NCBI GenBank assembly: GCA_040905425.1
Contig: JBBDRO010000100.1
Coordinates: 66,953-130,952 of the forward strand
Origin: Gemmatimonadota bacterium
GTDB lineage: Bacteria; Gemmatimonadota; Gemmatimonadetes; Longimicrobiales; RSA9
Direction of reading: 5' to 3'
Length of the DNA stretch: 64,000 bases
A program made the position numbers and the translations under genes. This document shows, piece by piece, positions 38,951-55,342 of the stretch (position 1 is its first letter; the number at the start of each line of letters is the position of its first letter). Below the pieces are notes generated by a model. That model did not search any database. It saw only the letters and a list, made by a program, of their open reading frames with translations, and had not been told where the DNA came from.

Positions 38951-39166
38951 CTAGCGGATGATGCCCAGCGGCAGGAGAACCGCGTAGCCGAGCACCAGCA
39001 GCAGCGGCGCGCCGACCGTGGAGCCACCCGCCAGCAGCACGTAGCCGGCCACCACGGCGAGCAGCCCGGCCACGAGCAGTACGGCGTTCACGGTGGAGAA
39101 TTCCAGCGAGCCCCGTTGCTGATCGGGGCGGGTTGGCTTCGCGCGCGTGCCGGTGCGTATATTCAT
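38951..39166 (-). CDS. Small two-TM membrane protein (71 aa), last gene of the che/mgl operon
   Basis: MNIRTGTRAKPTRPDQQRGSLEFSTVNAVLLVAGLLAVVAGYVLLAGGSTVGAPLLLVLGYAVLLPLGIIR. It lies 32 nt after the upstream peptidase gene. The rest of the 348-aa track ORF is antisense artefact. Confidence 0.5.
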   Translation of the reverse strand: MNIRTGTRAKPTRPDQQRGSLEFSTVNAVLLVAGLLAVVAGYVLLAGGSTVGAPLLLVLGYAVLLPLGIIR

Positions 39167-39198
39167 GCGCCGGAAACTGGCGGCGCTACGGGCGGCGG

Positions 39199-40230
39199 TC
39201 AAGGTGGCGGCTGTCCCGAGGGTGGCGGCGGTGGCGGCGGTGGTGGCGCTGTCCCGGGGTCCTCTCCCAACCAGTAGGCGGGTCGATCGGGAAGCTCGCT
39301 GGCGCGCAGGCGCTCCAGCCGCTCGCGGTTGCGGCGCCGCCGCAGGTAGGTGAGCGCCACCACCAGCACGGCCAGGAAGGCCCACAGCACCACGCTCTGC
39401 GCCAGAAAGACCAGCCAGCCGTAGCGGCTCCGCACCCGCTCCAGCCAGAGCCGCTCGAACTGCGTGGAGGAGACAGCGTACGTGGCGCGCATGGCCTGCT
39501 CGAAGGAACCCGTGGCCCGCCAGCGCTCCAGGAACGGTCCGAAGCCGCTCCCCCCGCCCTGCTCCGCCAGGTAGCGGACGGCATCGGCGGCCAGGAGGTA
39601 GGCCACCCGGGCCTGGCTGGTCCCGCGCGGCCAGGCCAGCGTGAGCTCGTCCAGCGACGGGGCGCTGCCGGTCAGGAACGCCACCCTGAGCATCCATCCC
39701 GCCGCCGGATCCAGCTCGCCCGCGGCCCACGTGGCGTACCCCTCGGAGAACCAGCGCGGTACCGCCGCGCGGCCCACCCGACGCTGCAACCCCACGTGCG
39801 CCAGTTCGTGCTTGAGAATGCGGGCCAGCTCGTTCATGGCGGCCGTACGCGGCGCGTGCAGGGGCAGCACGATGCGGCCCTCGAAGGGCAGCGCCACCCC
39901 CGCGCCCCACTCGGGGACCTGGCCGCCGGTCAACGCGTCGAAGGCCGCCTCGTCGGCCACCAGATGGATGTCCACCGTGTCGCCGCCCGGCCACCACCCC
40001 GCGGGGAAGCCGGGCAGCGGCAGGGCGTCCACCGCGCTCGCCAGCAGACGTTCGGCCAGTTCCCGCGCGGCGGCCGGCGCATACATGCGCATGCCGGGCC
40101 CGCGCAGCACGATGGTGGCGTCCTCCTGCCGGGCACCCGGTGCCGCGCGCCCGCCGAGGGGGGCAGCGGCGAAGAGCAGGAGAACGGCCGCGGCAACGAC
40201 CCCCGTGCGGCGCGGACTACGCCTGCGCAC
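39199..40230 (-). CDS. Membrane-anchored HEXXH zinc peptidase (peptidase MA-like) with a poly-Pro C-terminus
   Basis: Signal-like N-terminus, HELAH...WFSEGYA, a TM segment (YGWLVFLAQSVVLWAFLAVLVVALTYL), and a PPPPPPPPPSGQPPP tail. The start overlaps the cheB stop by 14 nt. Confidence 0.65.
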   Translation of the reverse strand: MRRRSPRRTGVVAAAVLLLFAAAPLGGRAAPGARQEDATIVLRGPGMRMYAPAAARELAERLLASAVDALPLPGFPAGWWPGGDTVDIHLVADEAAFDALTGGQVPEWGAGVALPFEGRIVLPLHAPRTAAMNELARILKHELAHVGLQRRVGRAAVPRWFSEGYATWAAGELDPAAGWMLRVAFLTGSAPSLDELTLAWPRGTSQARVAYLLAADAVRYLAEQGGGSGFGPFLERWRATGSFEQAMRATYAVSSTQFERLWLERVRSRYGWLVFLAQSVVLWAFLAVLVVALTYLRRRRNRERLERLRASELPDRPAYWLGEDPGTAPPPPPPPPPSGQPPP

Positions 40231-40867
40231 GGCGGGCCAGGAGCCGCATCCTGGTGACCACGGCGGCGCCCAGTTCGCTCAGCGGCAGGACGAGCTGCGC
40301 GTGCTCCGCGGCGGCGCGCGGCATGCTGCCCATGGTGGCGCTGGCCTCGTCCTGCGCCACGGTCCAGCCCCCCGCCTCCCGGATGGCGCGCATGCCCTCC
40401 GCGCCATCCCTCCCCATGCCCGTCAGCACCACGCCCGCCCCCGCCGGACCGAAGTGGCTCGCCACGGCGTGGAACAACAGGTCGGCCGTGGGGCGTAGGC
40501 CGCCCACGGGGTCCCCGTCGAGCGCCGTGAAGACCACGCCGGCCGCCGTCCTGGCCAGACCCAGATGCGCACCGCCCGGCGCCAGGTAGACGGTGCCGGA
40601 GCGGACAAGTTCTCCCGGCACGGCCTGGCGTACCGGGAGCGGCGTCAGGCCGTTCAGCCGGGCCGTGAGGGAGCGTGTAAAGAAGGCCGGGATGTGCTGG
40701 ATGACGATCACGGCGGCGGGAAAATCACCGGGCAGCTCGGCGATCAGGCGGGCCAGTGCGGAGGGCCCACCGGTGGAGGCGGCCACGGCCACCGCCGCGA
40801 CCGCCGGGGCCGATGCCGCCGGATCGGCATGCGGCGGCGACCCCCGGGTGGACTCAGAGTTCGACAT
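40217..40867 (-). CDS. cheB: Chemotaxis methylesterase CheB, catalytic domain only (no receiver domain)
   Basis: AVAASTGGPSAL, IVIQHIP and LTGMGRDGAEG; 216 aa. The ORF has no room for an N-terminal REC domain. Confidence 0.9.
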   Translation of the reverse strand: MSNSESTRGSPPHADPAASAPAVAAVAVAASTGGPSALARLIAELPGDFPAAVIVIQHIPAFFTRSLTARLNGLTPLPVRQAVPGELVRSGTVYLAPGGAHLGLARTAAGVVFTALDGDPVGGLRPTADLLFHAVASHFGPAGAGVVLTGMGRDGAEGMRAIREAGGWTVAQDEASATMGSMPRAAAEHAQLVLPLSELGAAVVTRMRLLARRAQA

Positions 40868-41345
40868 CGGGCGCTCGCATGGAGCTTACCAGGAGGCGGC
40901 CGTCGGTCGTGTGCAGGAAGACCGAGCGGCCGTAGCCGCCGCCCACGTCCTTGGCCACGAGCGGGATGCGGACAGCATCGAGCGCGCGCGTGGCGGCTGC
41001 CACATTGCGCTGTCCCAGGTTGCGGCGGTGCTCCTCCGCCACCGATTCGAACATGCTGGCCCCGCCAACCAGGCGGGCGCGCAGGCGGCCCGGGGCCGCG
41101 CCAGCCGTACGCATCTGGTCGATCAGGACCTGCACCGCTGTGGCGGCAAAGCGTCCCAGGGGCGTGGGGCGCCGTCCATCGGCGGGATCGGGCAGCATGG
41201 CGTGGGCCATCCCGCCCACACGGGCCTCCGGGTCCCACAGGGTGATGGCCACGCAGGATCCCAGACCCAGCGCACAGAGCACCTCCCCGCTACGCCCCAC
41301 CTTCACCTCGCCGATGCGGACGGGGACGCGAATGGGCCGCGTCAT
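40854..41345 (-). CDS. cheD: Chemoreceptor glutamine deamidase CheD
   Basis: LCALGLGSCVAITLWDPEARVGGMAHAMLP, and a ...GGYGRSVF end; 163 aa. Confidence 0.9.
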   Translation of the reverse strand: MTRPIRVPVRIGEVKVGRSGEVLCALGLGSCVAITLWDPEARVGGMAHAMLPDPADGRRPTPLGRFAATAVQVLIDQMRTAGAAPGRLRARLVGGASMFESVAEEHRRNLGQRNVAAATRALDAVRIPLVAKDVGGGYGRSVFLHTTDGRLLVSSMRAPDVEL

Positions 41346-42259
41346 GTACGGCGGTACACGCGTTCACGCGGGGCCACCGGGCTGAACAGTCCCGTGGCGC
41401 TACCGAAGAGGGCCTCCACCTTCCCCAGCACCAGGAATCCCCCTGGCGCCAGAGCCGCGTGAAGGCGGCGGAAGAGATCCTCCTGCACCCGCCGTTCGAA
41501 GTAGATGATCACGTTCCGGCAGAGGATGAGGTGCTGCTCGCGTGGGAAGGGATCGCGTAGCAGATCCAGCGGCCGGAAACGAACCCTGGCGTGCAGTTGC
41601 TCGTCGACCGTGCGTTGATCAGGGCCGCCGAACCAGCGCCGGCGCCGTCCCGCATCCAGATCACCCATGGCATACTCGGCGTAGGTTCCGGAGGCGGCCG
41701 CGGCCAGCGCACCGCGGTCCACGTCGGTGGCCAGAATGCGGCAACGCTGCGGCTCCAGGCTGCCAGCACTCTCCTCCACGAGCATGGCCAGCGAATAGGC
41801 TTCCTCGCCCGCCGCGGTGCCCGCGCTCCACAGCCGTACCTCGCCCCGGACCACGGCCAGCTCCGGGACCACCGCATCACGCAGGACCTTCCAGACCTCC
41901 GGATTGCGGAGAAACTTGCTCACGTTGATGGTCACGGCGTTCAGGAGCCGCTCGAGTTCCTCCGGCTGGCCCTCGAGCAACCGCTGGTAGGCGGCGTAAT
42001 CGTGCACACCACAGGCACGCATGCGCACGGCCACGCGGCGCCGCATGCAGCGCTCCTTGTAGCTGGCGCACGCCAGGCCGGTGCGGTTCTCCACGTAGCC
42101 CAGGAGGGCACCCAGCTCCGCCACTTCACGCTCGGTCAGCGGACCGTGCGCCAGCGGGAGGATGGCGTTCGGAGCGGCCCGGCGGTCCGCGGGCGGACGG
42201 ACCACGCGGCCCGCCCGCGGGGGCGGCGTGGCGCCGTTGGCGCGCTCCTCAGCCGGCAT
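41342..42259 (-). CDS. cheR: Chemotaxis protein methyltransferase CheR
   Basis: Start at MPAEERANG. The CheR N-domain is followed by a SAM domain (RLWSAGTAAGEEAYSLAMLV, ILCRNVIIYF). Confidence 0.9.
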   Translation of the reverse strand: MPAEERANGATPPPRAGRVVRPPADRRAAPNAILPLAHGPLTEREVAELGALLGYVENRTGLACASYKERCMRRRVAVRMRACGVHDYAAYQRLLEGQPEELERLLNAVTINVSKFLRNPEVWKVLRDAVVPELAVVRGEVRLWSAGTAAGEEAYSLAMLVEESAGSLEPQRCRILATDVDRGALAAAASGTYAEYAMGDLDAGRRRRWFGGPDQRTVDEQLHARVRFRPLDLLRDPFPREQHLILCRNVIIYFERRVQEDLFRRLHAALAPGGFLVLGKVEALFGSATGLFSPVAPRERVYRRT

Positions 42260-43868
42260 GCTCCACGATCTCCAGATTGTTGCGCACCACGCGATTGTGC
42301 GGGTTGAGCTCCAGGGCGCGGGTCCAGTGGCGCACCGCCTCCTCCCGCTGCCGTCCCTTGTAGAGCACATTGCCCATCTTGGCGTGCAGGTCATCCCCCA
42401 GGTCGGGATCCAGCTCGGCGGCGCGCTGATAGTGCTCCAGGGCGTCCTCGTGGAGGCCGCGCCGATAGATCACGTCCCCCAGGTTCTTGTGTGCCTGCGC
42501 CAGGCCGGGCTCTTCCTCTGAAGCGCGCCGATAACAGGCCTCCGCATGATCCAGGTTGCCACGCCGCTCGTGCACCAGCCCAGCCAGGAGGTGGACAGAG
42601 GCGGCATTGGGATGCGCCTCGACCGCCTCACCGGCCAGCGCGGCGGCACGGTCCAGGTCCCCGCCAAGCGCCGCAGCGAGCCCCGCGAAATGGTAGTACT
42701 GGGGAGAGGGCACCGCCGTGCCCAGCCGCCTGCGATACTCGGCATAGGCCTCGGCCGCTTCCGCGGGCCGCAGGGCATGGGTGAGCGTGAGGCCGCGTGC
42801 CAGCGCCACGGTCGGCGTGCCCGCCCGCAGCGTCTCCGCCTCATCCAGCACCAGGAGAGCGTCATCGAAGCGCTCCAGCGCGCGTAGGGAAACGGCCAGA
42901 TTCACGAAGGCGGCGAACTGCGGGCCGTGATCCTCCAGCAGGGACTTGAGCTGCCGCACCGCGGCGCGGTGGCGGCCGTCGCGCATGGCGGACAGCGCCA
43001 GATGGAAGCGGGCGGAGAGATCGTGCGGTTCCAGTTCCAGCACCCGCCCGAACTCACGCTGCGCATCCTCCAGCATGCCTGCGCGGAAGAACGCGGTCCC
43101 CAGGTTGCGGCGCTCCGCCAACTCCGCCGCCTTGCCGCGGCCACCCTCCTTTTCCTTGCGGCGCCCCACCCGATGGCAGAATCCCGCCTGGATGAGGCCG
43201 AAGAGCGCCTGCCCCACGGTGAACTCCACCAGCCCGCTCTCGTCCACCAGATCCTGAACGCTGCGCTCCCCGTCCAGCAGCAGGACAATGCGCTGCTGCT
43301 CCGCGGTGAGTTCCACATCGGAGGTGAGCAAACGCTCACTCTCCACTTCGAAGACCAGATCCAGGGAGGGGATCTTCTTCTCGATCAGGCTCCACTCGTC
43401 CACCCGGCGGGCGGCCTCCAGCAGGAGACTCTCCGGATTGATGGACACCAGGATGTCCGCCGAGTCGGGCTGCTCCCCCACCTCGAAGTAGAAGCTGCCG
43501 CGCGACCAGGTGAAGAGATGGTAGATGGCCTCTTCGATCTGCAGCCGGACGTAGCGCTCCAGATCCGCGCTGGTGATGTGGCCCTGCTCCACGAGCAGCT
43601 CTCCCACGCGGCGGTCAGGCTGCTGTGTCTGCAGCGCCAGTACCGCCTCGAGCTGCTCCTGCGTGAGGACGTCGTCGCGCACCAGGAGATCACCCAGGCG
43701 GTCCCGTCGGTTCACGACCTGTGCATACGTGATGCGGCCGGCTTCGAAGTAGATCTGACCGAAGCGCGAGCGATCCGTAACGGAAAGGCAACCGGTCTTC
43801 TGACCGAGCGCCAGGAGCTGGCACACGTCGGCCAGACTGGCCTCCTTCAGACTCCCCTTGATGGCCAT
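42249..43868 (-). CDS. PATAN (DUF4388) domain protein with a helical insertion and C-terminal TPR repeats (paralogue 2)
   Basis: Start at MAIKGSLKEASLADVCQLLALGQKTGCLSV. It has an inserted LGDLLVRDDVLTQEQLEAVLALQ / VGELLVEQGHITSADLERY repeat, then TPRs (VLELEPHDLSARFHLA, AAELDPDLGDDLHAKMG, ALELNPHN). Confidence 0.75.
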   Translation of the reverse strand: MAIKGSLKEASLADVCQLLALGQKTGCLSVTDRSRFGQIYFEAGRITYAQVVNRRDRLGDLLVRDDVLTQEQLEAVLALQTQQPDRRVGELLVEQGHITSADLERYVRLQIEEAIYHLFTWSRGSFYFEVGEQPDSADILVSINPESLLLEAARRVDEWSLIEKKIPSLDLVFEVESERLLTSDVELTAEQQRIVLLLDGERSVQDLVDESGLVEFTVGQALFGLIQAGFCHRVGRRKEKEGGRGKAAELAERRNLGTAFFRAGMLEDAQREFGRVLELEPHDLSARFHLALSAMRDGRHRAAVRQLKSLLEDHGPQFAAFVNLAVSLRALERFDDALLVLDEAETLRAGTPTVALARGLTLTHALRPAEAAEAYAEYRRRLGTAVPSPQYYHFAGLAAALGGDLDRAAALAGEAVEAHPNAASVHLLAGLVHERRGNLDHAEACYRRASEEEPGLAQAHKNLGDVIYRRGLHEDALEHYQRAAELDPDLGDDLHAKMGNVLYKGRQREEAVRHWTRALELNPHNRVVRNNLEIVEHAG

Positions 43869-43890
43869 CAGCCGCCTTCCTTCCGGCGCC

Positions 43891-45675
43891 TCATTCGCCC
43901 TCCTCCAGCGGTACGTCCTGATGGCCGGGCCAGTCCCAGAGCGCCTTTTCACGGCTCGTGAACCAGTGGTCCAGCGCCCCCCCCCGCCCCACCAGGGCGC
44001 CAGCTTCCCGCGGCGCGGGATCGGCGATGGGACGCAGACCCGCTGGCGCGGCCACCGGCTCCGTCCCGGAGGCCTCCTCATCCACGCTGCCGGAGGCGGT
44101 GAGTTCCACCACCAGCCCGGTCTCGAGGCGCCCACGGAGCCGATCCTCCAGGCCGTCGATCAAAGCCGGCGGGCCGGCGGCGCTGAAGAGCAGACGGGCC
44201 CCCGCACGACGTAGATGGTCGAAGAGGTGGAAGAGCTCCTCCTGGGCGCCCTCGGTGTCCGCCAACTCGTCCACGTCGGGCATGACCAGTACCCCCACCC
44301 GGCGCAGCCGGGCGCGCCAGGCCTCTACACCGTCGTGACCGAGCGCGTCCACCAGTTCGGAAGCAAATTCACGGCCTGGCAGCCAGGCCACGGTGAGCCC
44401 CTTCTGCAATTCCGCGATCTCGCGTGCCACGGCGGCCAGCACACGCTCGGCCAGTTCCCGGTCCCCGTGCAGGAAGTAGGGCACGTACCGGTCTCCGGTC
44501 CCCTGGGCCACCGCCGCACCGGCGCGCACGGCAAGATGGTTGGCGGGCAACGGCAACTCGGCCAACGTGGGCCCGGGTGGCGGCCGGGGCACGGGACGGG
44601 TGCGCGCCTGCACGGCCACCAGCAGTCCTTCCGCCTCCGTCACCCGCGCCGGGTCGCGCAGCACGTCGGTGCGCTCCAGCTCCGGGGCGTCACCCTCCGC
44701 TTCACGAATGAGGCGGGCCACGGTGCGCAGCCGCTCCACGCGTGACGCGAACCCCGTCAGGAACGCCTCCACCGCGGCCTCGGCCGGCGGGCTCGCCAAC
44801 GCCTCCTCAAGCAGGCGGGTGCGGAAGCCCTCCCCCTCCCAGCGGAGGATGGCCTCGGCCAGTTTGGCCTCGCTGCCGCCCGGCGAGACCACCTGACCGA
44901 TCGTGCCGGTGATCTCCGTCAGGAAGGCGCCGAACTCGTCGGGACCGCGCCGGTCCAGGGCCAGGCCGAGGAGACGACCCGCCTCCTCCATGCTCACCTG
45001 GCGGCCCTCCAGTTCCTGGATGGCCAGGATCCGGTTGAGTGCGCCCTGCAGCTCCCGCACGTTCGCGAAGGCGCCGCGCGCCAGGGCCTCCGTCACCCCA
45101 TCGCCGAGGGCCTGCCCGCGCTCCTCCGCCTTGCGGCGCACGATGGCCGCGCGGGTCTCCATGTCAGGCGGTGCCAGATCCGCTATAAGCCCCCCGGAGA
45201 AGCGGCTGAGGAGCCGATCGTCCAGTTCGTCGATCTCCGTGGGCGGACGGTCGCTGGCCAGCACCACCTGCCCGCCGCGCGACGCCATGCCGTCCCACGC
45301 CCGCAGCAACTCCTCCTGAACGGCTCGCCGTCCCGCCAGGAACTGGATATCGTCGAGCAGGAGGAGATCCGCGGCGTGGATCCGCTCCCGGAAGGCATCG
45401 CGCTGCCCGGACCGGATGGCACTCATCACGCCCTCCACCAGATGCTCCATGGTGTCGTAGGTGATGCGCAGGTCCGGATGGATGGTGCGCGTATGCTGCC
45501 CGATGGCCATGACCAGGTGCGTCTTGCCCAGCCCCGAGGCACTGTAGAGGAAGAGCGGGTTGTAGGCGGAGCCGGGCGTGTCGGCAACGCGCCGCGCTGC
45601 CGCAGCCGCGAGACGATTGGACGTCCCGACAATGAAGCTCTCGAAGGTGAGACGAGGGTCCAGCTCCAGCGACAT
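43891..45675 (-). CDS. DnaA-domain-III (Hda-like) AAA+ ATPase, internally duplicated, lacking DnaA domains I, II and IV
   Basis: The N-half aligns by eye to DnaA domain III: LDPRLTFESFIVGTSNRLAAAAARRVAD, Walker A SASGLGKTH, Walker B LLLLDDIQF, box VII DRLLSRF, sensor 2 NVRELQGALNRI. Residues around 395-560 repeat the same order with the P-loop lost. No DnaA signature or HTH is present. Confidence 0.85.
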   Translation of the reverse strand: MSLELDPRLTFESFIVGTSNRLAAAAARRVADTPGSAYNPLFLYSASGLGKTHLVMAIGQHTRTIHPDLRITYDTMEHLVEGVMSAIRSGQRDAFRERIHAADLLLLDDIQFLAGRRAVQEELLRAWDGMASRGGQVVLASDRPPTEIDELDDRLLSRFSGGLIADLAPPDMETRAAIVRRKAEERGQALGDGVTEALARGAFANVRELQGALNRILAIQELEGRQVSMEEAGRLLGLALDRRGPDEFGAFLTEITGTIGQVVSPGGSEAKLAEAILRWEGEGFRTRLLEEALASPPAEAAVEAFLTGFASRVERLRTVARLIREAEGDAPELERTDVLRDPARVTEAEGLLVAVQARTRPVPRPPPGPTLAELPLPANHLAVRAGAAVAQGTGDRYVPYFLHGDRELAERVLAAVAREIAELQKGLTVAWLPGREFASELVDALGHDGVEAWRARLRRVGVLVMPDVDELADTEGAQEELFHLFDHLRRAGARLLFSAAGPPALIDGLEDRLRGRLETGLVVELTASGSVDEEASGTEPVAAPAGLRPIADPAPREAGALVGRGGALDHWFTSREKALWDWPGHQDVPLEEGE

Positions 45676-45682
45676 TGCTCTC

Positions 45683-46312
45683 CTAGGTAGTGGCTGCGCC
45701 CGTCGGCGGCGCTTCGATCTTCTGACGGAAGCGGCGCGACAGGCTCTGCAACGTGAGCTGGCTGACCGCCTTCAGGGTGTCGAAGACGCCGTCCCCGGTG
45801 AGCGCCGCGGCCGGGAACGCCGGTACGTCACGAAAGTTCAACGTGTCATCCAGGTCGGCCACGCTCATGATCCCCGGCAGGTCCCGCTTGTTGTACTGCA
45901 GGACCATGGGGAAGTCTTCCAGCTCCACGTTTTCCTCCAGGAGATTCTCGTGGAGATTGCGCAGACTGTCCACGTTCTCCTCCATCTTCTCCCGCTGCGA
46001 ATCGGCCACGAAGACCACGCCGTCGGCCCCGCGCAGTACCAGCTTGCGGGTGGCGTTGTAGTACACCTGACCGGGCACCGTGTACAGTTGTACGCGCGTC
46101 CGGAACCCTGAGATCGTGCCCAGGTCGAGCGGCAGGAAATCGAAGAAGAGCGTGCGGTCTGTCTCCGTGGCCAGGGAGACCATGGGTCCCTTCCGCTCGT
46201 CCGGCACGTACGCGTGCACGTACTGGAGGTTGCTCGTCTTGCCGGACCGCCCCGGCCCGTAATAGACAATCTTGCAGGTGATCTCACGGGTGGAATAATT
46301 GACCAGGGACAT
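45683..46312 (-). CDS. mglA: Ras-like small GTPase MglA
   Basis: MSLVNYSTREITCKIVYYGPGRSGKTSNLQY...TETDRTLFFDFLP...LYTVPGQVYY...QYNKRDLP. It is near-collinear with Myxococcus MglA as I recall it, including the intrinsic Arg and Gln positions. Confidence 0.93.
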   Translation of the reverse strand: MSLVNYSTREITCKIVYYGPGRSGKTSNLQYVHAYVPDERKGPMVSLATETDRTLFFDFLPLDLGTISGFRTRVQLYTVPGQVYYNATRKLVLRGADGVVFVADSQREKMEENVDSLRNLHENLLEENVELEDFPMVLQYNKRDLPGIMSVADLDDTLNFRDVPAFPAAALTGDGVFDTLKAVSQLTLQSLSRRFRQKIEAPPTGAATT

Positions 46313-46342: not shown

Positions 46343-46828
46343 TCAATCCGGGTCCGACTCGAAGACCCGCTGGATCCCCGCTTCGAGATCTCGCTCGAAA
46401 CTGGCCTGATCCGTGGATCCCAGGTCGGCGCCGAATATGGGCAATGCGGCCAGGTCGGCCGCCAGACGGTCGAAGAAGAACTGTACCAGACCGAGCGTGG
46501 AGCCGCCGTCGAAGATCGTCACCACGATCAATTCCTCTACCGGAGTCTTCACGGGTGCCAGGAAGAGCTGCCGCTCCCTGCCCGCATGGTAGAGATGGGT
46601 CCACCGCCCCGCGCCCGAAATCTCGGCGAGCATACGGGAGGAGGCGTGTGCCGCCGCGGCCAGCGATGCCACGTTCACCACTTCGTAGCTGCTGGCAAAC
46701 CCGTGCTGCGCCAGCACCTGCCCCGAGTGGTTCACCAGCAGCGCCAGGCGGACCCGCGCCTCGCGTACGAAGCCATGCATGGGCTCGCGCACCGCACCCA
46801 TGATGGCGGGCAGTTCGTCACTTCTCAT
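46343..46828 (-). CDS. mglB: Roadblock/LC7 protein MglB (MglA GAP family) with an acidic tail
   Basis: ALLVNHSGQVLAQHG...VVTIFDGGSTLGLVQFFFDRLAADL parallels MglB VVIFDNRTSLGLVRLRIKKASDEL. The gene order mglB-mglA matches Myxococcus. Confidence 0.85.
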   Translation of the reverse strand: MRSDELPAIMGAVREPMHGFVREARVRLALLVNHSGQVLAQHGFASSYEVVNVASLAAAAHASSRMLAEISGAGRWTHLYHAGRERQLFLAPVKTPVEELIVVTIFDGGSTLGLVQFFFDRLAADLAALPIFGADLGSTDQASFERDLEAGIQRVFESDPD

Positions 46829-47175: not shown

Positions 47176-48155
47176 GCGTAGCTCTCCAGGAAGCGGCTGG
47201 CCAGTTCGCGCGCCCGCGCGGCCCCGCGCATCACCCATCCCACGGGCGCATCGCGCCGGGCCGCCAGGACCACCACGGTATCACCCGGAGCCGGCGCCAG
47301 GTGCAGCAGGGCCACCTCCGTGTGCAGCAGGATGCCCTCCCATGCGCCCAGGCTCAGGTGCTCGGCCGTGCGAGCCGCTTCCTCCACGGCGTCGCCCAGA
47401 CCGGCGCCCAGCCCTTCCGCCGAGGCATCGGCCGGCTCCCGCAGCGTGCCCGCCAGGATGAGGCCCTGCGCATCCAGCAGCAGCGCGCCGAGCACCGGCC
47501 CGCGCATCACGGCGTCGAAGAGGCGCGTGGGGTCCTCGGCCAGGACCGCCGCGTGCGCCGCGTGCGCCGCGTGCGCCGCCTCCGCCGCCTCCACCGCCGC
47601 CGCGTCGACGGGCGGAGACGGCCGCGGGGCGGGAGCCACCTCGGCCGCCGCGGCCCCGGAGGGATGGCCGTCGGCGCCATGGCCCGCGGTCGTGGTGCCA
47701 CCGAACGGATCCGGCGCGGCCTTGACCTTGCGCGCCTCCTGACGCTGCCGCAGCAACTGCAGCGCCTCCCGCACCGCGGGATCGGCCGGCCGGGTCAGCG
47801 CGGCCGCTTCCAGATGCTGCCGCGAACGCTCCAACTCGCCCGTCTCAAGGTAACAGAAACCAAGACCGCGCAGCGCATCGAAGTTGCCGGGGTCCAGGCG
47901 CAGCACCATGGACCACTCGTCCGCGGCGCGCTCCCGATCCCCCGCTTCCAGGTAGAGCAGCGCCAGCAGCCCGTGACCCTCCACGTTCATGGGGTGCGCT
48001 TCCAACCCGCGCAGGCAGAGATTGAGTGCGGCGTCGCGCTGCCCCTGGCGCCGGTAGGCGCGGGCCAGCGGCAGGAACGCCAGCGAGCCGGGGTCACTGG
48101 CCACCTCCTGGCTCCAGCGTTGCAGATCCGCCGTCACGGGTCGCGTCATTGCCAC
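47172..48155 (-). CDS. TPR (N-terminal) plus Roadblock/LC7 (C-terminal) fusion protein
   Basis: N-terminal TPRs (LARAYRRQGQRDAALNLCLRGLEAHPMN, VLRLDPGNFDALRGLGFCY) and an Ala/His-rich linker. The C-terminal VLGALLLDAQGLILAGTL...VVVLAARRDAPVGWV is Roadblock-like. Confidence 0.7.
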   Translation of the reverse strand: MAMTRPVTADLQRWSQEVASDPGSLAFLPLARAYRRQGQRDAALNLCLRGLEAHPMNVEGHGLLALLYLEAGDRERAADEWSMVLRLDPGNFDALRGLGFCYLETGELERSRQHLEAAALTRPADPAVREALQLLRQRQEARKVKAAPDPFGGTTTAGHGADGHPSGAAAAEVAPAPRPSPPVDAAAVEAAEAAHAAHAAHAAVLAEDPTRLFDAVMRGPVLGALLLDAQGLILAGTLREPADASAEGLGAGLGDAVEEAARTAEHLSLGAWEGILLHTEVALLHLAPAPGDTVVVLAARRDAPVGWVMRGAARARELASRFLESYA

Positions 48156-48180
48156 TCCTCGTTGCCGCCATGCAGGAAGC

Positions 48181-49305
48181 TCATCGGGCCCCGCTCTCGA
48201 CCACCCGCGTCAGCACGCGCAGGGCGGCCAACCCCTCATCCACGACCTTCCGCTCATCACCATCGGGCATCAGGCGCAGGTAGGTGTCCCATGCGCGCGC
48301 GCCGCGCTCCAGGTCCCCGGTGCGCACGGCCGAGAAGCCCAGGCGGAAGTGCCCTTCGGTGGAGAGCGGATCCAGCCCCACGGCCCGTGCGTAAGCCTCC
48401 GTTGCCGCGCGCATGCGCCGCTGCGCCTCCAGGGCCCGACCCGCCAGCAGGGCAATCTCCGCGTGCTCGGGGTATGCGGTCTCGAGTTCCGCGGCCAGTT
48501 TCTGCGCCTCCTCCACACGGCCGTCGGCCAGGTGTTGCTCGGCCCGCGCCATGGCCTCCCGGAGCTCACCTTCCGGTACGTGGCTGCGCTGCTCCTGCAC
48601 CTGCAGCACACCCGTGCTCACCAGTCCGTAGATCGTCTTGGCCACGTCGAACGCGCTGCGTCCCAGGTCCGCCGCGATCTGCCGGATATCCCGGTGCGCG
48701 TCGATTTCCGCGAGCACCTCCCACTCCTCCGTGCGCAGGTCGAGCGGCGCCGCCTCGCGCTCGGCGGCCGGGGCCAGCACCGGCACCGCCTCGGGACCGG
48801 GCACCTTGGATTCCAGCCGCGTCCATTCATCGATCCGCCGGGCACCCTCCATGAGCAGCGACTCCACCCGCACCTGGGCCAGCAGGCGGCCCTGACCGAT
48901 GCCGGCACGCTCCTCGAAGCGGAAGTACCCCTCGTCCCAGCCCATCAGTTCGTAGACGGTCTCCTCCATCTGGAAGCGGAGTTGCCGCTCCAGTTCTTCC
49001 TCCGTGATGCTCCCCATCTCCAGGAGGATCTCGGCCAGTCGGCGCGTGGGGTCGGTGCGCTGCAGTTCGAGCGCGCGATCCAACTCCCGCTGCGTGAGTC
49101 GACCGGCCCGGATGAGCAGCTGCCCCAGCCGCCGCGGCGAGCGCCGCCGTACCGCGAACACGATGGCGCCCCGACTGAAGTGGACGATGGCCTCGTCGTT
49201 CAAACGATCCGAGCGAACCGTCAGCACGCCGGTCTTGTGCGCCAGTTCGAGGAGCTGGAGCACGTCCTGGATGCTGAGTTCCTCGAGGGGCCCCTCGATG
49301 GCCAC
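48181..49305 (-). CDS. PATAN (DUF4388) domain protein with a helical insertion and C-terminal TPR repeats (paralogue 1)
   Basis: GTG start at VAIEGPLEELSIQDVLQLLELAHKTGVLTV. The insertion is LGQLLIRAGRLTQRELDRALELQ / LAEILLEMGSITEEELERQ, followed by TPRs. The upstream 96 aa of the track ORF overlap the TPR gene. Confidence 0.75.
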   Translation of the reverse strand: MAIEGPLEELSIQDVLQLLELAHKTGVLTVRSDRLNDEAIVHFSRGAIVFAVRRRSPRRLGQLLIRAGRLTQRELDRALELQRTDPTRRLAEILLEMGSITEEELERQLRFQMEETVYELMGWDEGYFRFEERAGIGQGRLLAQVRVESLLMEGARRIDEWTRLESKVPGPEAVPVLAPAAEREAAPLDLRTEEWEVLAEIDAHRDIRQIAADLGRSAFDVAKTIYGLVSTGVLQVQEQRSHVPEGELREAMARAEQHLADGRVEEAQKLAAELETAYPEHAEIALLAGRALEAQRRMRAATEAYARAVGLDPLSTEGHFRLGFSAVRTGDLERGARAWDTYLRLMPDGDERKVVDEGLAALRVLTRVVESGAR

Positions 49306-49318
49306 GCGCCCTCCCCGC

Positions 49319-52012
49319 CTACGTGGCCGCGACCGGCGCCGCGCCCGGCGCCGCGCTCTGGAGCCGCTCCAGCGCAGCGCTGGCGTCCGCGTTGCCGGGG
49401 TCGAAGCCGAGGGCGCGCCGATAGGCCACGCGCGCCTTGCCGTGCATGCCGGCATCCTCCAGCACCGCCCCCAGGCGAACCAGACCCTGGAGGTGGTAGG
49501 GATCCACCGTGAGGAGATCCACCAAGGCGGCGATGGCCTCGCGGTGGTGCCCGCGCCCGCGCTCGACCTCCGCCAGCCCGAGCGCGGCCTCACCGTAGCT
49601 GGGCAGGACCGCCAGCGCCACGCGGTACTCCGCCGCCGCCGCCGCCGCGTCCCCCCGCCGCGTCAGCACCCGTGCCAGAGCCGTGCGCGCCGCCGGCGCG
49701 TCCCCGCCACGCTCCAGAGCGTCACGCAACGCCCGCTCGGCGCGGGCCGTTTCGCCGGCCTCCAGGGCGGCGCGACCGAGCTGCGTGAGCAGGCCGGGAT
49801 TGGCCGGTCCGGTGTCCACGGCCTCCTCCAGGACCAGCATGGCCCGGCCGTGGTCGCCCACCTGGGTCAGTCCCTCCGCCAGCGTGCGCAGCGCCACCAC
49901 GTCACCCGGGAACAGCTCGGTGAGTCGCTCGGCCGCCTCCACCGCTTCCCGCGGCCTGTCGAGCTGGAGCAGCGAGCGGGCGGCGCCGAGCAACGCCCTG
50001 CCGAGGGCGGCCTCGCCCTCGTCGTCCTCGTCGCTCGCCGTACCACCTCGCGCCACCTCGGCCAGGGCGGCCTCGAAACGCTCCACCGCCTCACCCGCCG
50101 CGCCGCGGCGCAGGAAAGCCTCACCCTGCAGAAGGAGGCCCTGCACCCGGGGGCCGCCCTCCTGGATCATGTGCAGGGCCTCACGCTGCACCGCCTCCAG
50201 GTCTCCCCGGTCGAGCGCGGCCTGCGCCGCGGCCAGCCGGCTCCGGCCGCCCGCGGGGGAAGCGGCCTGGCCCGAACCCTCCCGGGCAAAGACCGAATCC
50301 AGCTCGCCCGCATCAGGCACGAAGGCCTCGATGGGCTGCCCGGGGCGGACCTCCTCCGCCGCGTCCAGCTCGGGCGCCAGCACGCTCGTCTCCTCGTACT
50401 GCAGGTCGATGAGCAGCCGGTGGCGCGCGGGGGGGATGAAGGGGCTCTTCTCCAGGGCGTGCCGGGTCTCCCGCAGCGCACCCTCGTAGTCCCCCAGTGC
50501 GGACAGGGCGAACGCCAGGTTGTAGCGTGCCTCGGCCAGGTCGGGGTCGAGCTCTACCGCGCGTACGAGAGCATCGCGCGCTCCGGAGGCATCGCCACCC
50601 TCCATGAGCGCGGCGCCCAGCCCGGCCCAGGCGGGGGCGGCGCCGTCATCGGCCTGCAGGGCCACGCGAAAGGTCTCGACCGCCTCGCCATGGCGGCCGG
50701 CGCGTTGCAGCAGGAGCGCCAGGTTGCGGGCCACGTCGGCCGTGGCCCGTCCGCCCTCGAGTGCTCGCCGCAGCAGTTGCTCGGCCGGCTGCGGCCGCCC
50801 CTGGTGCAGCTCCGCGACGGCCAGGTTGTTCAGGACCAGGACGTAACTACCGTCCAGTTCGAGCCCGCGCCGGTAGGCGGCCGCGGCACCGTCCAGATCC
50901 CCCTGCTGGTGCCGCGCCACGCCAAGCTCGTTCCACAGCTTGGGAGAATCAGCCTGCTGCCGCGTGAGCGCCTCGTAGAGACTGACGGCTTCCGCGTCCC
51001 CCCGCAGCAGCAGCATCTCCGCCTGGGCCTGCTGCACCAGTTGAGCGTCCTCCCCCCTTTCCGTGGCCAGGCGGAACTCCCGCAGCGCCTCGTCGAAAAG
51101 CGCCTTCTGCCGGAAGGCAATGCCCAGATTGTAGTGGGCCAGCGCCGCGTTCTCGGCCACGGCGGGTCCCTCGCCACGCTCGCCCACCAGCTCCTGATAC
51201 CGGGCGTTGCTGTGGCTGTCCAGGGACAGATTGGTCTCGGCGCGGGACAGTGACGGGTTGAGCTCGGACGCACGGGCCGCAGCGCTGCCCGCCTGTTCCT
51301 CCATGCCCAGGTCACCGTAAACGAAGGCCAGGAGGTGATGCGCCTCCGCCAGCGACGGCTGGAGCTGGACCGCCATCTCCAGCGGTCCCCGCGCCTCGGC
51401 GCTTCGTCCCTGCTGGTACTTCACCTCCCCCATGAGGAGGTGTGCGCGGGCGTTCGAAGCGTCCAGCGCCGCCGCGTTGCCCAGCGCCACCAGCGCCTCG
51501 TCCGGACTGCCCCGCCGCAGCTCGGCGCGCGCCAGCATGAGGTAGACGGCGGCGTCGCGCGGACGACCCGTCTGGACGGCACGCCACTCACGCACCGCCG
51601 CCTCGGCGTCCCCCGAATGGTAGTAGGCGCGCGCGAGCCGCTCCCGGGCCACGAGGTCATCGGCGTCGCGAGCCAGCGCGGCGCGGGCATCGGCCACCAG
51701 CCGCTCGAAGTAGCCGGTGCCGAAGAAGACGATGCGCAGATTGCGCTCCGCCACCTGCATGCGGGGATCCAGTTCGAGGGCGCGCTCGAACTGTTCCGCG
51801 GCATCCCCGAAGAGTCCCTTGTGATAGTAGACCACGCCCAGGTTGTTGTGGGCGTTCGGGTCATCCTGCTTGATACGGCGGGCCAGGCCGCGGAGCAACT
51901 CGGCGTCCCGCTCCGAACGCGGCTGTGCGCCCTGGGGCCGGCTGCGCGGACCGTCGCCTCGATCCCGCCAGGGAAGCGTGGGCTGCTGCGGCTCGGGCCG
52001 GGGCGTACTCAC
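49319..52012 (-). CDS. Large TPR-repeat protein (897 aa)
   Basis: About 20 TPR-like units throughout (NNLGVVYYHKGLFGDAAEQFERALELDP, YNLGIAFRQKALFDEALREF, WNELGVARHQQGDLDGAAAAYRRGLELD). The GTG start overlaps the cheC stop (GTGA). Confidence 0.8.
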   Translation of the reverse strand: MSTPRPEPQQPTLPWRDRGDGPRSRPQGAQPRSERDAELLRGLARRIKQDDPNAHNNLGVVYYHKGLFGDAAEQFERALELDPRMQVAERNLRIVFFGTGYFERLVADARAALARDADDLVARERLARAYYHSGDAEAAVREWRAVQTGRPRDAAVYLMLARAELRRGSPDEALVALGNAAALDASNARAHLLMGEVKYQQGRSAEARGPLEMAVQLQPSLAEAHHLLAFVYGDLGMEEQAGSAAARASELNPSLSRAETNLSLDSHSNARYQELVGERGEGPAVAENAALAHYNLGIAFRQKALFDEALREFRLATERGEDAQLVQQAQAEMLLLRGDAEAVSLYEALTRQQADSPKLWNELGVARHQQGDLDGAAAAYRRGLELDGSYVLVLNNLAVAELHQGRPQPAEQLLRRALEGGRATADVARNLALLLQRAGRHGEAVETFRVALQADDGAAPAWAGLGAALMEGGDASGARDALVRAVELDPDLAEARYNLAFALSALGDYEGALRETRHALEKSPFIPPARHRLLIDLQYEETSVLAPELDAAEEVRPGQPIEAFVPDAGELDSVFAREGSGQAASPAGGRSRLAAAQAALDRGDLEAVQREALHMIQEGGPRVQGLLLQGEAFLRRGAAGEAVERFEAALAEVARGGTASDEDDEGEAALGRALLGAARSLLQLDRPREAVEAAERLTELFPGDVVALRTLAEGLTQVGDHGRAMLVLEEAVDTGPANPGLLTQLGRAALEAGETARAERALRDALERGGDAPAARTALARVLTRRGDAAAAAAEYRVALAVLPSYGEAALGLAEVERGRGHHREAIAALVDLLTVDPYHLQGLVRLGAVLEDAGMHGKARVAYRRALGFDPGNADASAALERLQSAAPGAAPVAAT

Positions 52013-52626
52013 ACGAGCCTCAGCGCCCGGAGCATGGCCTCCAGCGACGCGTCATCCGGAATGAGCAGGAAGTGGGCGCCCATCTCCGTTTTACCGTCCA
52101 GCATGAGGTCCGTATTCATGACGAAGACAAAGTCCTGGTCCGCACCGAAATTCACATAGCTGGTGGACAGCACCGCGCCCACCATGTCCATGGCAAAGGA
52201 GGGCACGGACATGATGAGCAGCATGCCCATGAACTCGGAGAGCGCGTTCAGGTAGGCGCCCACGATGATGTTGCCCACCTCTTCCAGGATGGACTGCTCG
52301 GCCGGTCCGAGATCACGTGGGAACTCCAGGCCCTTGCGGCCTCCCATGATCTCCACCAGTACGGCGGCGGTGCCAGCGGGGAAAAGCTGGAGGGTTCGTC
52401 CGGTGACGTCCCCCAGGACCTTCATCACCACGGCGGAGACGGGCTCCTGGGGGTCGCCCATGGCCGAGGAAACATCCTCGAGTGCCACTACCTTCACCTC
52501 GGGCACTGACACGGTGATGGCCCGCGTGGTCATGTCCGACAACGCCGTGGCCGCGTGCCCCGCGCCGATATTGGCGATCTCGCGGAGCGCGGAGTACTGG
52601 ATCTCGGTGAGGCCGCGCACGTCCAT
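52009..52626 (-). CDS. cheC: CheC-family CheY-P phosphatase
   Basis: Two CheC repeats: SALREIANIGAGHAATALS and ILEEVGNIIVGAYLNALS (the D/S-X3-E-X2-N-X22-P type context); 205 aa. Confidence 0.85.
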   Translation of the reverse strand: MDVRGLTEIQYSALREIANIGAGHAATALSDMTTRAITVSVPEVKVVALEDVSSAMGDPQEPVSAVVMKVLGDVTGRTLQLFPAGTAAVLVEIMGGRKGLEFPRDLGPAEQSILEEVGNIIVGAYLNALSEFMGMLLIMSVPSFAMDMVGAVLSTSYVNFGADQDFVFVMNTDLMLDGKTEMGAHFLLIPDDASLEAMLRALRLV

Positions 52627-52630
52627 TCGA

Positions 52631-54442
52631 TCAGCTCACACTCAGGGGGTCCAGCACCAGGGCGGGCCTGCCATCCGCCAGCAGCGTGGCGCCGGAGAAG
52701 AGCGGCAGCGCCCCCACGCCCGGATGGAAGGCCTTCACGAGGATCTGCTCGCGGCGTACGATCTCGTCCACGCCCAACGCAAAGCGACGTTCGCCCGACT
52801 CGGCCACCACCGCCGCCCGCTCGCCCCCCTCCGGATCCACCCCCAGGACGGCGCGCATGCGGATGAGCCGGACCGGCTCGTCACGCAGTACGAGCCATTC
52901 CCCCGTGCCGTCCACGCGCACCGAAGTGAGGGCAAAATCCACCGCCTCCGATACGTGCGTGAGCGGCACGGCGTAGATCTCCTGGCCCACCCGCACCTGC
53001 AGGGCGGGCGCCACGGCCAGCGTGAGCGGCAGCCGCATCACGAAGTCGGTGCCCTGCCCCGTCCGGGTCCGCATGTCGATAGCGCCGCCGAGCGCGCGCA
53101 CACGGTTCACCACCGCGTCCAGCCCCACCCCACGGCCTGAGACCTCCGTCACCGCGGCGGCCGTGGAGAAGCCGGGGTGGCTGAGGATCCGAAAGAGCTC
53201 GTCGTCTTCCAGCACGCCGTCGAAATCGGCGGGCAGGATGCCACGCTCCTGTGCGCGTTCCACCACCGTCTCCTGATGCACGCCGCCGCCATCGTCCTGC
53301 AGGGTGATCCGCACGCTCGTGCGCTCGCGCTCGGCGGCCAGGCGGATCTGCCCGCGGGGAACCTTGCCAGCGGCACGGCGCGCCTCGTTGCCCTCCAGGC
53401 CGTGGTCTACGGCGTTGCGCAGGAGATGGACGATGGGATCCACGATCTCGTCGAGGATGGCACGGTCGAGTTCGATGTCCTGCCCCTCCATGACCAGTTC
53501 CACGTCCTTGCCGAGCGAGCGGGCCGCGTCCCGCACCACGCGGGGGAAGCGCTGGAAAACGTCGGCCACCGGGACCATGCGCATCGAGAGCACTGCGTGC
53601 TGCAGCTCGGACGCCACGGTACTGATGCGGGAAGCGACGTCCCCCATCCCGTTCACGGCGGCTACGTCCAGCTCTCCGGCATACTCCGCCAGCCGGCCCT
53701 GCAGCACGGCCAGTTCCGCCACGCGCTCGGCCACCTCGTCGAGGCGCCGCTGATCCACGCGCACCTGGGTAGCGGTGGCCCGAGCCGGACCGGACCGCCC
53801 GGCCGCCTGCGAGTCCCCCCGCTCGACCGTGGCGCTGGCCACCTCCCCCGCCGCGCGCAGCGCCACCGTGACGGCCTCCGCGTCGGCATCCTCCTCGAGC
53901 AGAACCAGAAAACGTCCGTCGAAGGCCTCGTCGAACTCCGCGGGTAGCGTACCTACGACTCCTCCCACCGCGCGCGCCGCGACCACCGCGAGCAGCGCGC
54001 GCGCGGCTTTGATGGGCGCGTCCTCTTCCAGGCGCACGCGCACGGCGGGCACGCCGGCCGGGCGGGCCGGTCCGGCACGGTCCCGCCCCGCGGTCCCCGC
54101 GGGTGCGGCCGCGGCGGCCACGTCGGGTGACGGATCCAGCGCGGCGGCCTGGAGCCGGTCGGCCGCGGCCAGCAAGGCGTCCACGAGTTCCGGGTCCACC
54201 TCCAGCGTGCCAGCACGCACCGCGTCCAAGCGGTCCTCGAGCGCGTGTGCCTGCTCGGTCACCAGGGTGTAGCCCATGCTCGCGGCCATCCCCTTCAGGG
54301 TGTGGGCGGCACGGAACGCCGCGGCCACCGCCTGGCGCGCCTCCTCCCCGCCCGCTTCCAGGGCCAGGATGCTCTGGGTCAGCCGCTGCAGATGCTCTTC
54401 GGCCTCGGCTGCGTAGAGGGCGCGGAAGCGGTCGACATCCAT
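52631..54442 (-). CDS. cheA: Chemotaxis histidine kinase CheA
   Basis: Start at MDVDRFRALYAAEAEEHL. Hpt domain AAHTLKGMAASMG, then a dimerisation/HATPase region (HLLRNAVDHGLE, DDGGG, GRGVGLDAV) and a C-terminal CheW-like domain. Confidence 0.93.
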   Translation of the reverse strand: MDVDRFRALYAAEAEEHLQRLTQSILALEAGGEEARQAVAAAFRAAHTLKGMAASMGYTLVTEQAHALEDRLDAVRAGTLEVDPELVDALLAAADRLQAAALDPSPDVAAAAAPAGTAGRDRAGPARPAGVPAVRVRLEEDAPIKAARALLAVVAARAVGGVVGTLPAEFDEAFDGRFLVLLEEDADAEAVTVALRAAGEVASATVERGDSQAAGRSGPARATATQVRVDQRRLDEVAERVAELAVLQGRLAEYAGELDVAAVNGMGDVASRISTVASELQHAVLSMRMVPVADVFQRFPRVVRDAARSLGKDVELVMEGQDIELDRAILDEIVDPIVHLLRNAVDHGLEGNEARRAAGKVPRGQIRLAAERERTSVRITLQDDGGGVHQETVVERAQERGILPADFDGVLEDDELFRILSHPGFSTAAAVTEVSGRGVGLDAVVNRVRALGGAIDMRTRTGQGTDFVMRLPLTLAVAPALQVRVGQEIYAVPLTHVSEAVDFALTSVRVDGTGEWLVLRDEPVRLIRMRAVLGVDPEGGERAAVVAESGERRFALGVDEIVRREQILVKAFHPGVGALPLFSGATLLADGRPALVLDPLSVS

Positions 54443-54452
54443 GGAGGTCGGT

Positions 54453-54815
54453 TCAGCCCAGCACGCGCTGTACGGCTTCGAGCACGCGGGAAGGCTGGAA
54501 CGGTTTGACCACGAAGTCGCGCGCCCCCGCCTGGATAGCTTCGATGACCAGCGCCTGCTGTCCCATGGCGCTGCACATGAGGATACGGGCTTTGGGGAAC
54601 TCCTTGACGATCGCGCGCACGGCATCGATACCGCCCATGTCCGGCATCACGATGTCCATGGTGACCAGATCCGGTTTCAACTCGCGGTATTGTTCCACCG
54701 CCTCGGAGCCGGTCTGCGCTTCACCGACCACCTCGAAGCCCGCCTGCTTCAGGATCTCTCCCAGCATGGTGCGCATGAAGAGTGCGTCATCGCAGATCAG
54801 AACGGTTCGTGCCAT
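54453..54815 (-). CDS. cheY: Chemotaxis response regulator CheY (stand-alone receiver)
   Basis: MARTVLICDDALFMR...DLVTMDIVMPDMGG...FVVKPF; 120 aa. Confidence 0.93.
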   Translation of the reverse strand: MARTVLICDDALFMRTMLGEILKQAGFEVVGEAQTGSEAVEQYRELKPDLVTMDIVMPDMGGIDAVRAIVKEFPKARILMCSAMGQQALVIEAIQAGARDFVVKPFQPSRVLEAVQRVLG

Positions 54816-54849
54816 GGTTCCTCGATGGGATGGTTCGTGCGGCGGCGCC

Positions 54850-55342
54850 TCATGCGGCCAGCAGCCGTTCGATGAGCGCATCGGGGTTCAGCAGCAGCGC
54901 GCGGTGCCCGGCCAGTTCCGCCACGCCCAGGACGTCCCCGGGTTCGAGCCCCATGCCGCGGAGTTCGTCCTCGTCGAGCGCCGCCCAGTCGGCGGCGCCC
55001 GGCGCCCCCCGGAGCCATCCGGAGCACTTCCTCCACGGCCAGAGCCAGCGGGCGCTCGCCGTCGTCCACGAAGACGAGCCGGTGCCCCGGCCGCGCGGCG
55101 GCCGGCCGTAGGCGCAGCACCACGCCCAGGTCACAGACGGTGACTACGAGGCCGCGCAGCCCTACCAGCCCGCACACTTCCGGACCGCAGCCGGGCAGCC
55201 GCGTGACCGGCCGCGGCGTGGTGATCTCGCGCACCCGGTCGAGCGGCAAGCCAAGCCGGTGGCCGTCACACGTGAGCAGCACCCAGCGCGGTAGCGGGGC
55301 CGTGGTCGATCCCCCGTCGGACGTGACCGCCGTGCTCTCCAT
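54850..55342 (-). CDS. cheW: CheW coupling protein, apparently frameshifted at a G6 run (C6 on the plus strand, 55005-55010)
   Basis: The N-part is in the frame of track ORF 54797..55342 (WVLLTCDGHRLGLPLDRVREI...PLALAVEEVLRMAPGG). The C-part is in the frame of ORF 54850..55134 (APGAADWAALDEDELRGMGLEPGDVLGVAELAGHRALLLNPDALIERLLAA). Removing one G restores a CheW of about 164 aa. Confidence 0.75.

Follow-up and report, generated by a model that had tools for sequence, protein, structure and literature searches.

To our knowledge, Myxococcus is the only setting in which a chemosensory pathway is known to control MglA polarity, and there the components are dispersed and joined through extra regulators. 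The Frz pathway of Myxococcus xanthus regulates reversals through the Group 1 small GTPase MglA (bearing an R53 arginine finger and a TVPGQ motif) and its Roadblock-type GTPase-activating protein (GAP) MglB, further Roadblock paralogues (MglC and RomY) assist MglB, and PilB is recruited by an MglA effector, the tetratricopeptide-repeat (TPR) protein SgmX; these parts lie at separate loci and are linked by additional response regulators (FrzZ and RomR). Here we describe a single operon of the Gemmatimonadota, abundant and barely studied soil and sediment bacteria, in which a chemosensory (Che) pathway is co-encoded with an MglA/MglB module, two PATAN-TPR proteins and a DnaA-like ATPase. It lies in a window of 64,000 nucleotides, the whole stretch of DNA that was analysed (assembly GCA_040905425.1, contig JBBDRO010000100.1, positions 66,953 to 130,952), from a metagenome-assembled genome (MAG) of the Longimicrobiales (4.12 Mb, 115 contigs, 96.7% complete, GC 71.6%) whose DNA is present in 2024 sediment metagenomes, as found in a search of sequencing runs that listed DNA runs and no RNA runs.

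The operon comprises 16 conserved, tightly packed minus-strand genes (39199–55342 of the window), mostly translationally coupled, as established with Pfam and NCBIfam profiles and start-codon checks. Its order is cheW, cheY, cheA, cheC/X, an 897-aa TPR gene, PATAN-TPR 1, a TPR-Roadblock fusion, a Roadblock gene, mglB and mglA, followed by the DnaA-like tandem AAA+ gene, PATAN-TPR 2, cheR, cheD, cheB and a membrane HExxH peptidase gene (Table 1). Neighbouring genes overlap by 4–14 nt or stand about 30 nt apart at most, the widest gap being 32 nt; the seven start/stop overlaps listed in the original prediction (4, 4, 4, 11, 4, 14 and 14 nt) are all exact, and the gene models confirm its observation that the che genes form two blocks bracketing the GTPase module. 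That the genes are closely spaced, translationally coupled and kept in order suggests a single transcript. A consensus scan for internal terminators found none beyond chance (5 against 3.8 ± 2.5 expected from shuffles), which speaks neither for nor against breaks in transcription. The prediction had counted 17 genes, of which 16 stand; the last, a 71-aa open reading frame (ORF) with two transmembrane (TM) segments, lacks any tblastn homologue in relatives, was rejected as a member and is probably outside the module.

Some 20 genomes belonging to the family and the order share this gene order and its ileS-lspA-rluD flank (45–85% amino-acid identity), as do members of further families within the class (37–82%). 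With metagenome contigs counted in, about 30 independent instances, from at least two orders of one class and at least one more family, show the operon order with near-identical spacing, which is more than chance would give; the independent Logan metagenome contigs L026–L028 carry the whole operon with every junction at 8 nt or less. The joint recurrence of che, mglBA and DnaA domain III genes that had been proposed as a check is therefore borne out class-wide, and the worry that the arrangement might be unique to one genome falls away. mglA adjoins the DnaA-like gene in every relative that has both on one contig, and of all the operon's proteins CheY varies least (76–92% identical across the class, with the D57-equivalent and K104 conserved). 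Two components appear lineage-specific from their homologues: the TPR-Roadblock fusion (448 homologues, Gemmatimonadota) and the DnaA-like protein (3066 homologues, the best 120 all from Gemmatimonadota/Longimicrobiales). A search for the latter in contigs of other genomes, leaving out its own, returned one distant Spirochaetes locus (37% identity) without che or mgl genes, a result that bears little on distribution. The TPR-Roadblock protein of L026–L028 is labelled 'Candidatus Cloacimonetes bacterium' in NCBI, yet it sits in a complete Gemmatimonadota-type operon; the label probably reflects a misbinned MAG.

Set beside described systems, the locus shows clear parallels but lacks defining features of Frz, the Tfp class and the conservons. 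The proposed route parallels Frz in placing a Group 1 MglA polarity switch, with Roadblock paralogues and TPR proteins, under a chemosensory pathway. FrzE is a CheA-REC fusion, whereas the CheA of the operon ends in a CheW-like P5 domain without REC; Frz uses the dual-REC FrzZ and the cytoplasmic methyl-accepting chemotaxis protein (MCP) FrzCD, whereas here there is a single-REC CheY, and the sole HAMP/TM MCP is encoded elsewhere. Membership of Frz was rejected for want of a CheA-REC, a FrzZ and an MCP in the operon. The Gemmatimonadota operon gathers all its parts at one locus: a single CheY, CheC/X, CheD, the PATAN-TPR scaffolds and the DnaA-III tandem AAA+ protein, to which nothing known in Myxococcus polarity corresponds. 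A chemosensory operon and a PATAN output are shared with the cyanobacterial Tax/Pil (Tfp-type) systems, whose PatA-type regulators (PixE, PixG, LsiR and PilG of Synechocystis) are PATAN-REC proteins; these fuse PATAN to REC and involve no MglA, whereas here PATAN carries TPR repeats, the receiver is a stand-alone CheY and MglA/MglB is built in. The Tfp class (Chp/Pil) was likewise rejected: one Hpt, a CheA without REC and one CheY contrast with the several Hpt domains and REC of ChpA and with PilG/PilH. The best NCBIfam match of CheA is the generic CheA model, below cutoff.

The actinobacterial conservons (CvnABCD) are akin to this operon in that one locus hard-wires an MglA-like GTPase and its MglB-like GAP to a sensory kinase, but their MglA is of Group 2, a membrane histidine kinase takes the place of Che, and they have no TPR, PATAN or AAA+ component. 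With a Group 1 MglA and neither a membrane histidine kinase nor CvnC, the operon is not a conservon. M. xanthus SofG, a second Group 1 MglA that positions type IV pili (T4P) and sorts PilB/PilT with bactofilins, and the Bdellovibrio MglA that works with a TPR protein are partial parallels; both differ in having no co-encoded Che pathway, DnaA-III ATPase or PATAN scaffolds. Neither the literature searched nor the curated families yielded a description of a che-mgl operon of this kind in Gemmatimonadota; within that scope, the architecture is not one already characterised.

The genome places the operon in a specific context. Its copies of CheA and CheW are the only ones in the genome, a single MCP is present (575 aa; HAMP and MCPsignal domains, a TM segment and a periplasmic N-terminal region) as an orphan far from the che operon (contig C52, 7839–9566), a genome search found no flagellin, and PilB/PilT-type ATPases and PilC platform proteins are encoded. 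T4P platform genes were found in all module-carrying genomes checked. Taken together, the host is a piliated bacterium that has no flagella and no chemosensory pathway but this one. We propose that a class-wide operon hard-wires this pathway to a dedicated Group 1 MglA/MglB polarity switch that steers T4P-based surface motility, and give this proposal an even chance of being right as a whole. Since the arrangement is class-wide yet undescribed, the group probably steers cell polarity, most likely for pilus-driven movement, by a hard-wired route unlike known systems. The hard-wired Che-to-small-GTPase device of the original prediction is upheld in part, as a deeply conserved, tight operon and sole chemosensory system; the flow of signal from Che to MglA and its output are what we infer.

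Loss of the Che core in one relative bears directly on this coupling. G030, a member of the order (97% complete), has no CheW anywhere in its genome and keeps cheY directly upstream of the TPR, PATAN, TPR-Roadblock, mglB, mglA, DnaA-like, PATAN and peptidase block, with the CheY phospho-site residues retained in alignment. CheY is kept despite loss of the core and so travels with the mgl module, a pattern that fits a link between the two. The same genome also favours independence of the Che pathway and the Mgl module, with the two merely co-located and co-transcribed and no direct signal transfer between them, given that the core was lost there without loss of the module. Strict class-wide synteny, translational coupling and the splitting of the che genes around the mgl block all argue otherwise, as do the retention of CheY where CheA is lost and the status of the pathway as the only chemosensory system of a genome with no flagella to drive; we regard mere co-location as very unlikely.

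The operon MglA has the G1 motif GPGRSGKT and, on the criteria of Wuichet & Søgaard-Andersen 2014, falls in Group 1: R53 and T54 (an arginine finger adjoining the switch-I threonine) and a TVPGQ G3 motif in place of DxxGQ (T78-V79-P80-G81-Q82) are invariant in 19 MglAs. A second, canonical mglB-mglA pair adjoins cinA elsewhere in the genome (contig C65, 7579–8670). In a tree of 37 MglAs, the operon and canonical proteins form two clades (SH-aLRT 100 each) that remain separate in all relatives; by this tree the duplication is older than the order. Three Roadblock proteins are encoded in the operon, namely MglB, a 116-aa Roadblock and the TPR-Roadblock fusion, with a Pfam Robl_LC7 domain in the first two and at the C terminus of the third; the NCBIfam MglB model scores below cutoff. 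Myxococcus has heteromeric Roadblock GAP complexes of MglB with RomY or MglC (PMC9481161), and the operon trio resembles such MglB/MglC/RomY-type partners by analogy. Similarity of the 897-aa TPR protein to SgmX in NCBIfam is sub-threshold, and a role as effector like that of SgmX is therefore no more than a lead.

Both PATAN-TPR proteins carry the PATAN (DUF4388) domain by Pfam, fused to TPR repeats and not to REC. Proximity of MglB/MglA to PATAN genes was reportedly noted, in general terms, by Makarova in 2006. It is also reported in general terms by Wuichet & Søgaard-Andersen 2014 (PMC4316618). As the output domain of the cyanobacterial PatA-type regulators, PATAN binds PilB1 and PilC and sets pilus polarity in phototaxis, and its alpha-helical insertion has been likened to the N1 region of pilus ATPases (bioRxiv 10.1101/2021.06.11.447907). 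In both proteins here the insertion passes the cutoff of the NCBIfam 'c-di-GMP-binding MshE-related' motif (c-di-GMP, cyclic di-GMP) and contains tandem RLGxLL...Q repeats. The residues R57, L58, G59, Q80 and Q110 are invariant in 27 PATAN domains, with the tandem ~24-residue RLGxxL...Q pattern of MshEN type. An AlphaFold2 (AF2) model of PATAN-TPR 2 residues 1–270 (pLDDT 87) superimposes through residues 55–114 on c-di-GMP-bound MshE (5htl; Z 9.3, root mean square deviation (RMSD) 2.0 Å over 59 residues, 34% identity, VIA) and on PilF-GSPIIB (Z 8.8–8.9, RMSD 1.4–1.5 Å over 57 residues, VIA), the matches having 26–34% identity. The modelled fold is thus MshEN-like, matching the tandem helical c-di-GMP-binding motif of the MshE/PilF MshEN/GSPII domains. 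Theirs is at the N terminus of a secretion or pilus ATPase, whereas here it is inside the PATAN domain of a TPR scaffold and the binding is putative; on this model, PATAN domains may bind c-di-GMP. In the same protein, residues 161–237 (window ~43157–43388) are modelled as a winged helix, aligning with GATOR1/SEA subunits (Z 9.7) and with MarR-type winged helix-turn-helix domains (Z ~5).

Cyclic di-GMP, acting through these motifs, could accordingly be imagined as the main input to MglA, with Che as a secondary modulator. The motif exceeds the NCBIfam cutoff, resembles the c-di-GMP-bound domains of MshE and PilF in structure and has invariant residues throughout the 27 PATAN domains; the genome encodes 11 GGDEF proteins, and G030 keeps the module without any CheW. 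Most genomes, however, retain the che genes beside the module in a strict order, an arrangement that speaks for functional coupling; CheY is the best-conserved operon protein, and ligand binding by PATAN is a model-based prediction. Primacy of c-di-GMP over Che seems to us unlikely. Elsewhere in the window (4935–6182) a protein with REC and HD-GYP (HD_5) domains is likely to be a response-regulator-controlled c-di-GMP phosphodiesterase.

The DnaA-like protein (594 aa) has two AAA+ modules separated by a helical linker, the first with intact Walker A (GLGKT) and Walker B (DDIQ) motifs and the second degenerate. In the AF2 model (pLDDT 87), module 1 matches domain III of Bacillus subtilis DnaA (8bv3, TMt 0.93; Foldseek), and the predicted tandem arrangement aligns with the D1-D2 ATPases p97/Rix7 (Foldseek). 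In one family (f3) the orthologue is shorter and has a single module. DnaA_N and Bac_DnaA_C profiles and the AF2 model reveal neither DnaA domain I nor the DNA-binding domain IV. Identity as the replication initiator was therefore tried and rejected, the domain III AAA+ feature being present and domains I and IV missing. Hda was rejected also: it has a single AAA+ module against the tandem here, and the N terminus of the DnaA-like protein aligns with the start of DnaA domain III, with no beta-clamp motif seen. NCBIfam TIGR00362 (a DnaA equivalog model) nonetheless scores above cutoff, and JGI names homologues 'chromosomal replication initiator protein'; because a separate canonical DnaA is encoded in the genome (contig C19), this is a likely misannotation and carries a systematic risk of further ones. 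A complex prediction for MglA (with GTP and Mg) and residues 1–530 of the DnaA-like protein (AlphaFold/ESMFold, per-chain alignments) gave a score of 0.31 against a mark of 0.32, and counts neither way. No description of a DnaA-III AAA+ protein in a polarity module was found in the literature searched. The original prediction had held the extra components to be beyond any described system; the PATAN and Roadblock proteins can now be partly mapped, and the tandem AAA+ protein still cannot.

An integral DnaA domain III homologue, recognized by NCBIfam DnaA/Hda models, invites the thought that polarity serves a purpose other than motility, such as cell-cycle or replication timing (through the DnaA-III ATPase) or division-site choice tied to environmental signals. 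Hda-like DnaA-III proteins do regulate replication initiation, and motility of Gemmatimonadota is poorly documented. Against such a role, the protein has neither domain IV nor a recognizable clamp motif and the genome keeps its canonical DnaA, PATAN points to the T4P motor through the PATAN-PilB binding of cyanobacteria, and full Che adaptation implies gradient-type sensing. We judge a non-motility purpose to be distinctly unlikely.

For the proposed Che-to-MglA route to pilus-driven movement, the following mechanism can be envisaged. The orphan MCP array would control CheA autophosphorylation, with full adaptation through CheR, CheB and CheD and with CheC/X as phosphatase. Phosphorylated CheY (CheY~P) would act on the PATAN-TPR scaffolds, the MglA/MglB module or both, amounting to a 'split PatA' regulator whose REC (CheY) and PATAN reside in separate proteins; the MshEN-like motifs of PATAN may bring in c-di-GMP as a further signal. 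MglB would be the GAP that sets the GDP/GTP state of MglA, tuned by the Roadblock and TPR-Roadblock proteins much as by MglC/RomY in Myxococcus. MglA-GTP would then recruit the TPR and PATAN-TPR effectors, possibly with the DnaA-like AAA+ protein, to one pole, where PATAN would engage the T4P motor PilB/PilC by analogy with the cyanobacterial PatA-type regulators, so that the front-rear polarity of T4P-dependent surface motility is set or reversed on chemoreceptor input. A fuller version joins three inputs at one pole (CheY~P, c-di-GMP via the PATAN motifs and the MglA GTPase cycle), with the DnaA-III tandem AAA+ protein as a nucleotide-driven polar scaffold or MglA-GTP effector. We consider so complete an integrator rather unlikely; if true, it would give a DnaA-family AAA+ protein a role described in no polarity system.

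This genome departs from its relatives in three places. cheW carries a 1-nt frameshift at a run of six G, its C-terminal part continuing in the +1 frame to 54850, and is intact in relatives; no Logan contig from three sequencing runs spans the homopolymer, all breaking exactly there, which makes an assembly or sequencing artefact at the homopolymer likely, with microheterogeneity as the alternative. CheB, here and in one relative (G036), is 216 aa long without REC, whereas most relatives have a REC-CheB of 355–500 aa, as does L026; adaptation in the host would in consequence escape feedback through CheA phosphorylation. In module 2 of the DnaA-like protein the Walker A motif GxxGxGK[ST], kept in about 40 homologues, is gone, and no compensating frameshift was found.

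Several points weigh against Che-steered, pilus-based polarity. These three defects could reflect some drift, though relatives are intact. G030, which has no CheA, shows that the mgl module can do without the Che core, and Che input may be modulatory and not essential. The polarity assignment is a prediction from gene content and conservation; T4P motility is read as the probable output solely because T4P genes are present and flagella absent; the CheY-PATAN and MglA-DnaA-like links are putative; and motility is barely described for Gemmatimonadota in the literature.

Because the whole route resides in one class-wide conserved operon, chemotaxis-to-GTPase coupling could be tested at a single locus that can be deleted or expressed. 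Two components that come with the locus are unexplained: the tandem AAA+ protein derived from DnaA, which adjoins MglA, and the PATAN scaffolds, which combine c-di-GMP-receptor motifs with membership of a PilB-binding family. The operon predicts that Gemmatimonadota have a regulated, probably pilus-based, surface behaviour so far overlooked, and it flags the likely misnaming of its AAA+ gene as a chromosomal replication initiator by the NCBIfam DnaA model.

Table 1. Features of the che-mgl operon and its immediate flanks (positions in the window)
Feature	Position	Strand	Evidence and remarks
cheW	54797..55342	-	Pfam CheW; 1-nt frameshift at G6 run ~55020-55030
cheY	54453..54815	-	Pfam Response_reg; single REC
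cheA	52631..54442	-	Pfam: Hpt-P2-dimerisation(P3)-HATPase-CheW; no C-terminal REC
cheC/cheX phosphatase	52009..52626	-	Pfam CheC/CheX
897-aa TPR scaffold	49319..52012	-	Pfam TPR
PATAN(DUF4388)-TPR 1	48181..49305	-	Pfam DUF4388; NCBIfam c-di-GMP_motif above cutoff
MshEN-like c-di-GMP motif (putative), PATAN-TPR 1	residues 59-112, ~48970-49131	-	NCBIfam; motif scan
TPR-Roadblock fusion	47172..48155	-	Pfam: TPR N-terminal, Robl_LC7 C-terminal
Roadblock/LC7, 116 aa, MglC-like paralogue candidate	46825..47175	-	Pfam Robl_LC7
mglB, Roadblock GAP	46343..46828	-	Pfam Robl_LC7; NCBIfam MglB model sub-threshold
mglA, Group 1	45683..46312	-	Pfam Arf; alignment; tree
DnaA-domain-III-derived tandem AAA+ ATPase	43891..45675	-	Pfam Bac_DnaA; alignment; AF2 and Foldseek
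DnaA-like module 1	45181-45663	-	Walker A and B intact
DnaA-like module 2	44104-44547	-	degenerate; Walker A lost at 44420-44480
PATAN(DUF4388)-TPR 2	42249..43868	-	Pfam DUF4388; NCBIfam; AF2 model
MshEN-like c-di-GMP motif (putative), PATAN-TPR 2	residues 55-114, ~43527-43706	-	NCBIfam; AF2 model
cheR methyltransferase	41342..42259	-	Pfam CheR/CheR_N
cheD deamidase	40854..41345	-	Pfam CheD
cheB methylesterase without REC	40217..40867	-	Pfam; ORF lengths in relatives
membrane-anchored HExxH zinc peptidase	39199..40230	-	Pfam Peptidase_MA_2
71-aa two-TM ORF (probably outside the module)	38951..39166	-	translation only; no match in relatives
upstream flank: rluD 55542-56525, lspA 56506-57051, ileS 57055-60468	55542..60468	-	Pfam; order kept in relatives
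sigma70-like promoter consensus upstream of cheW	55375..55404	-	consensus scan; weak, not above shuffles overall

Two gene models in Table 1 merit comment. The true start of cheA is amino acid 61 of a longer ORF, and the Peptidase_MA_2 protein, the last conserved gene product of the operon, has a signal peptide, a C-terminal TM segment and a cytoplasmic Pro-rich tail. The operon had also been said to adjoin polarity and division genes (divIVA and dcw). dcw genes do exist, 12–27 kb away and outside the conserved unit, and no divIVA was identified; the dcw-type cluster (12933–27416) encodes FtsZ, a Mur ligase, MurD, MraY, MurF, MurE and a PASTA-PBP transpeptidase. Beyond the upstream flank, the window holds a TonB-ExbD-ExbB cluster (61804–63969), and just past the 71-aa ORF it encodes a protein with CXXCH (multiheme cytochrome-like) motifs (38192–38797).

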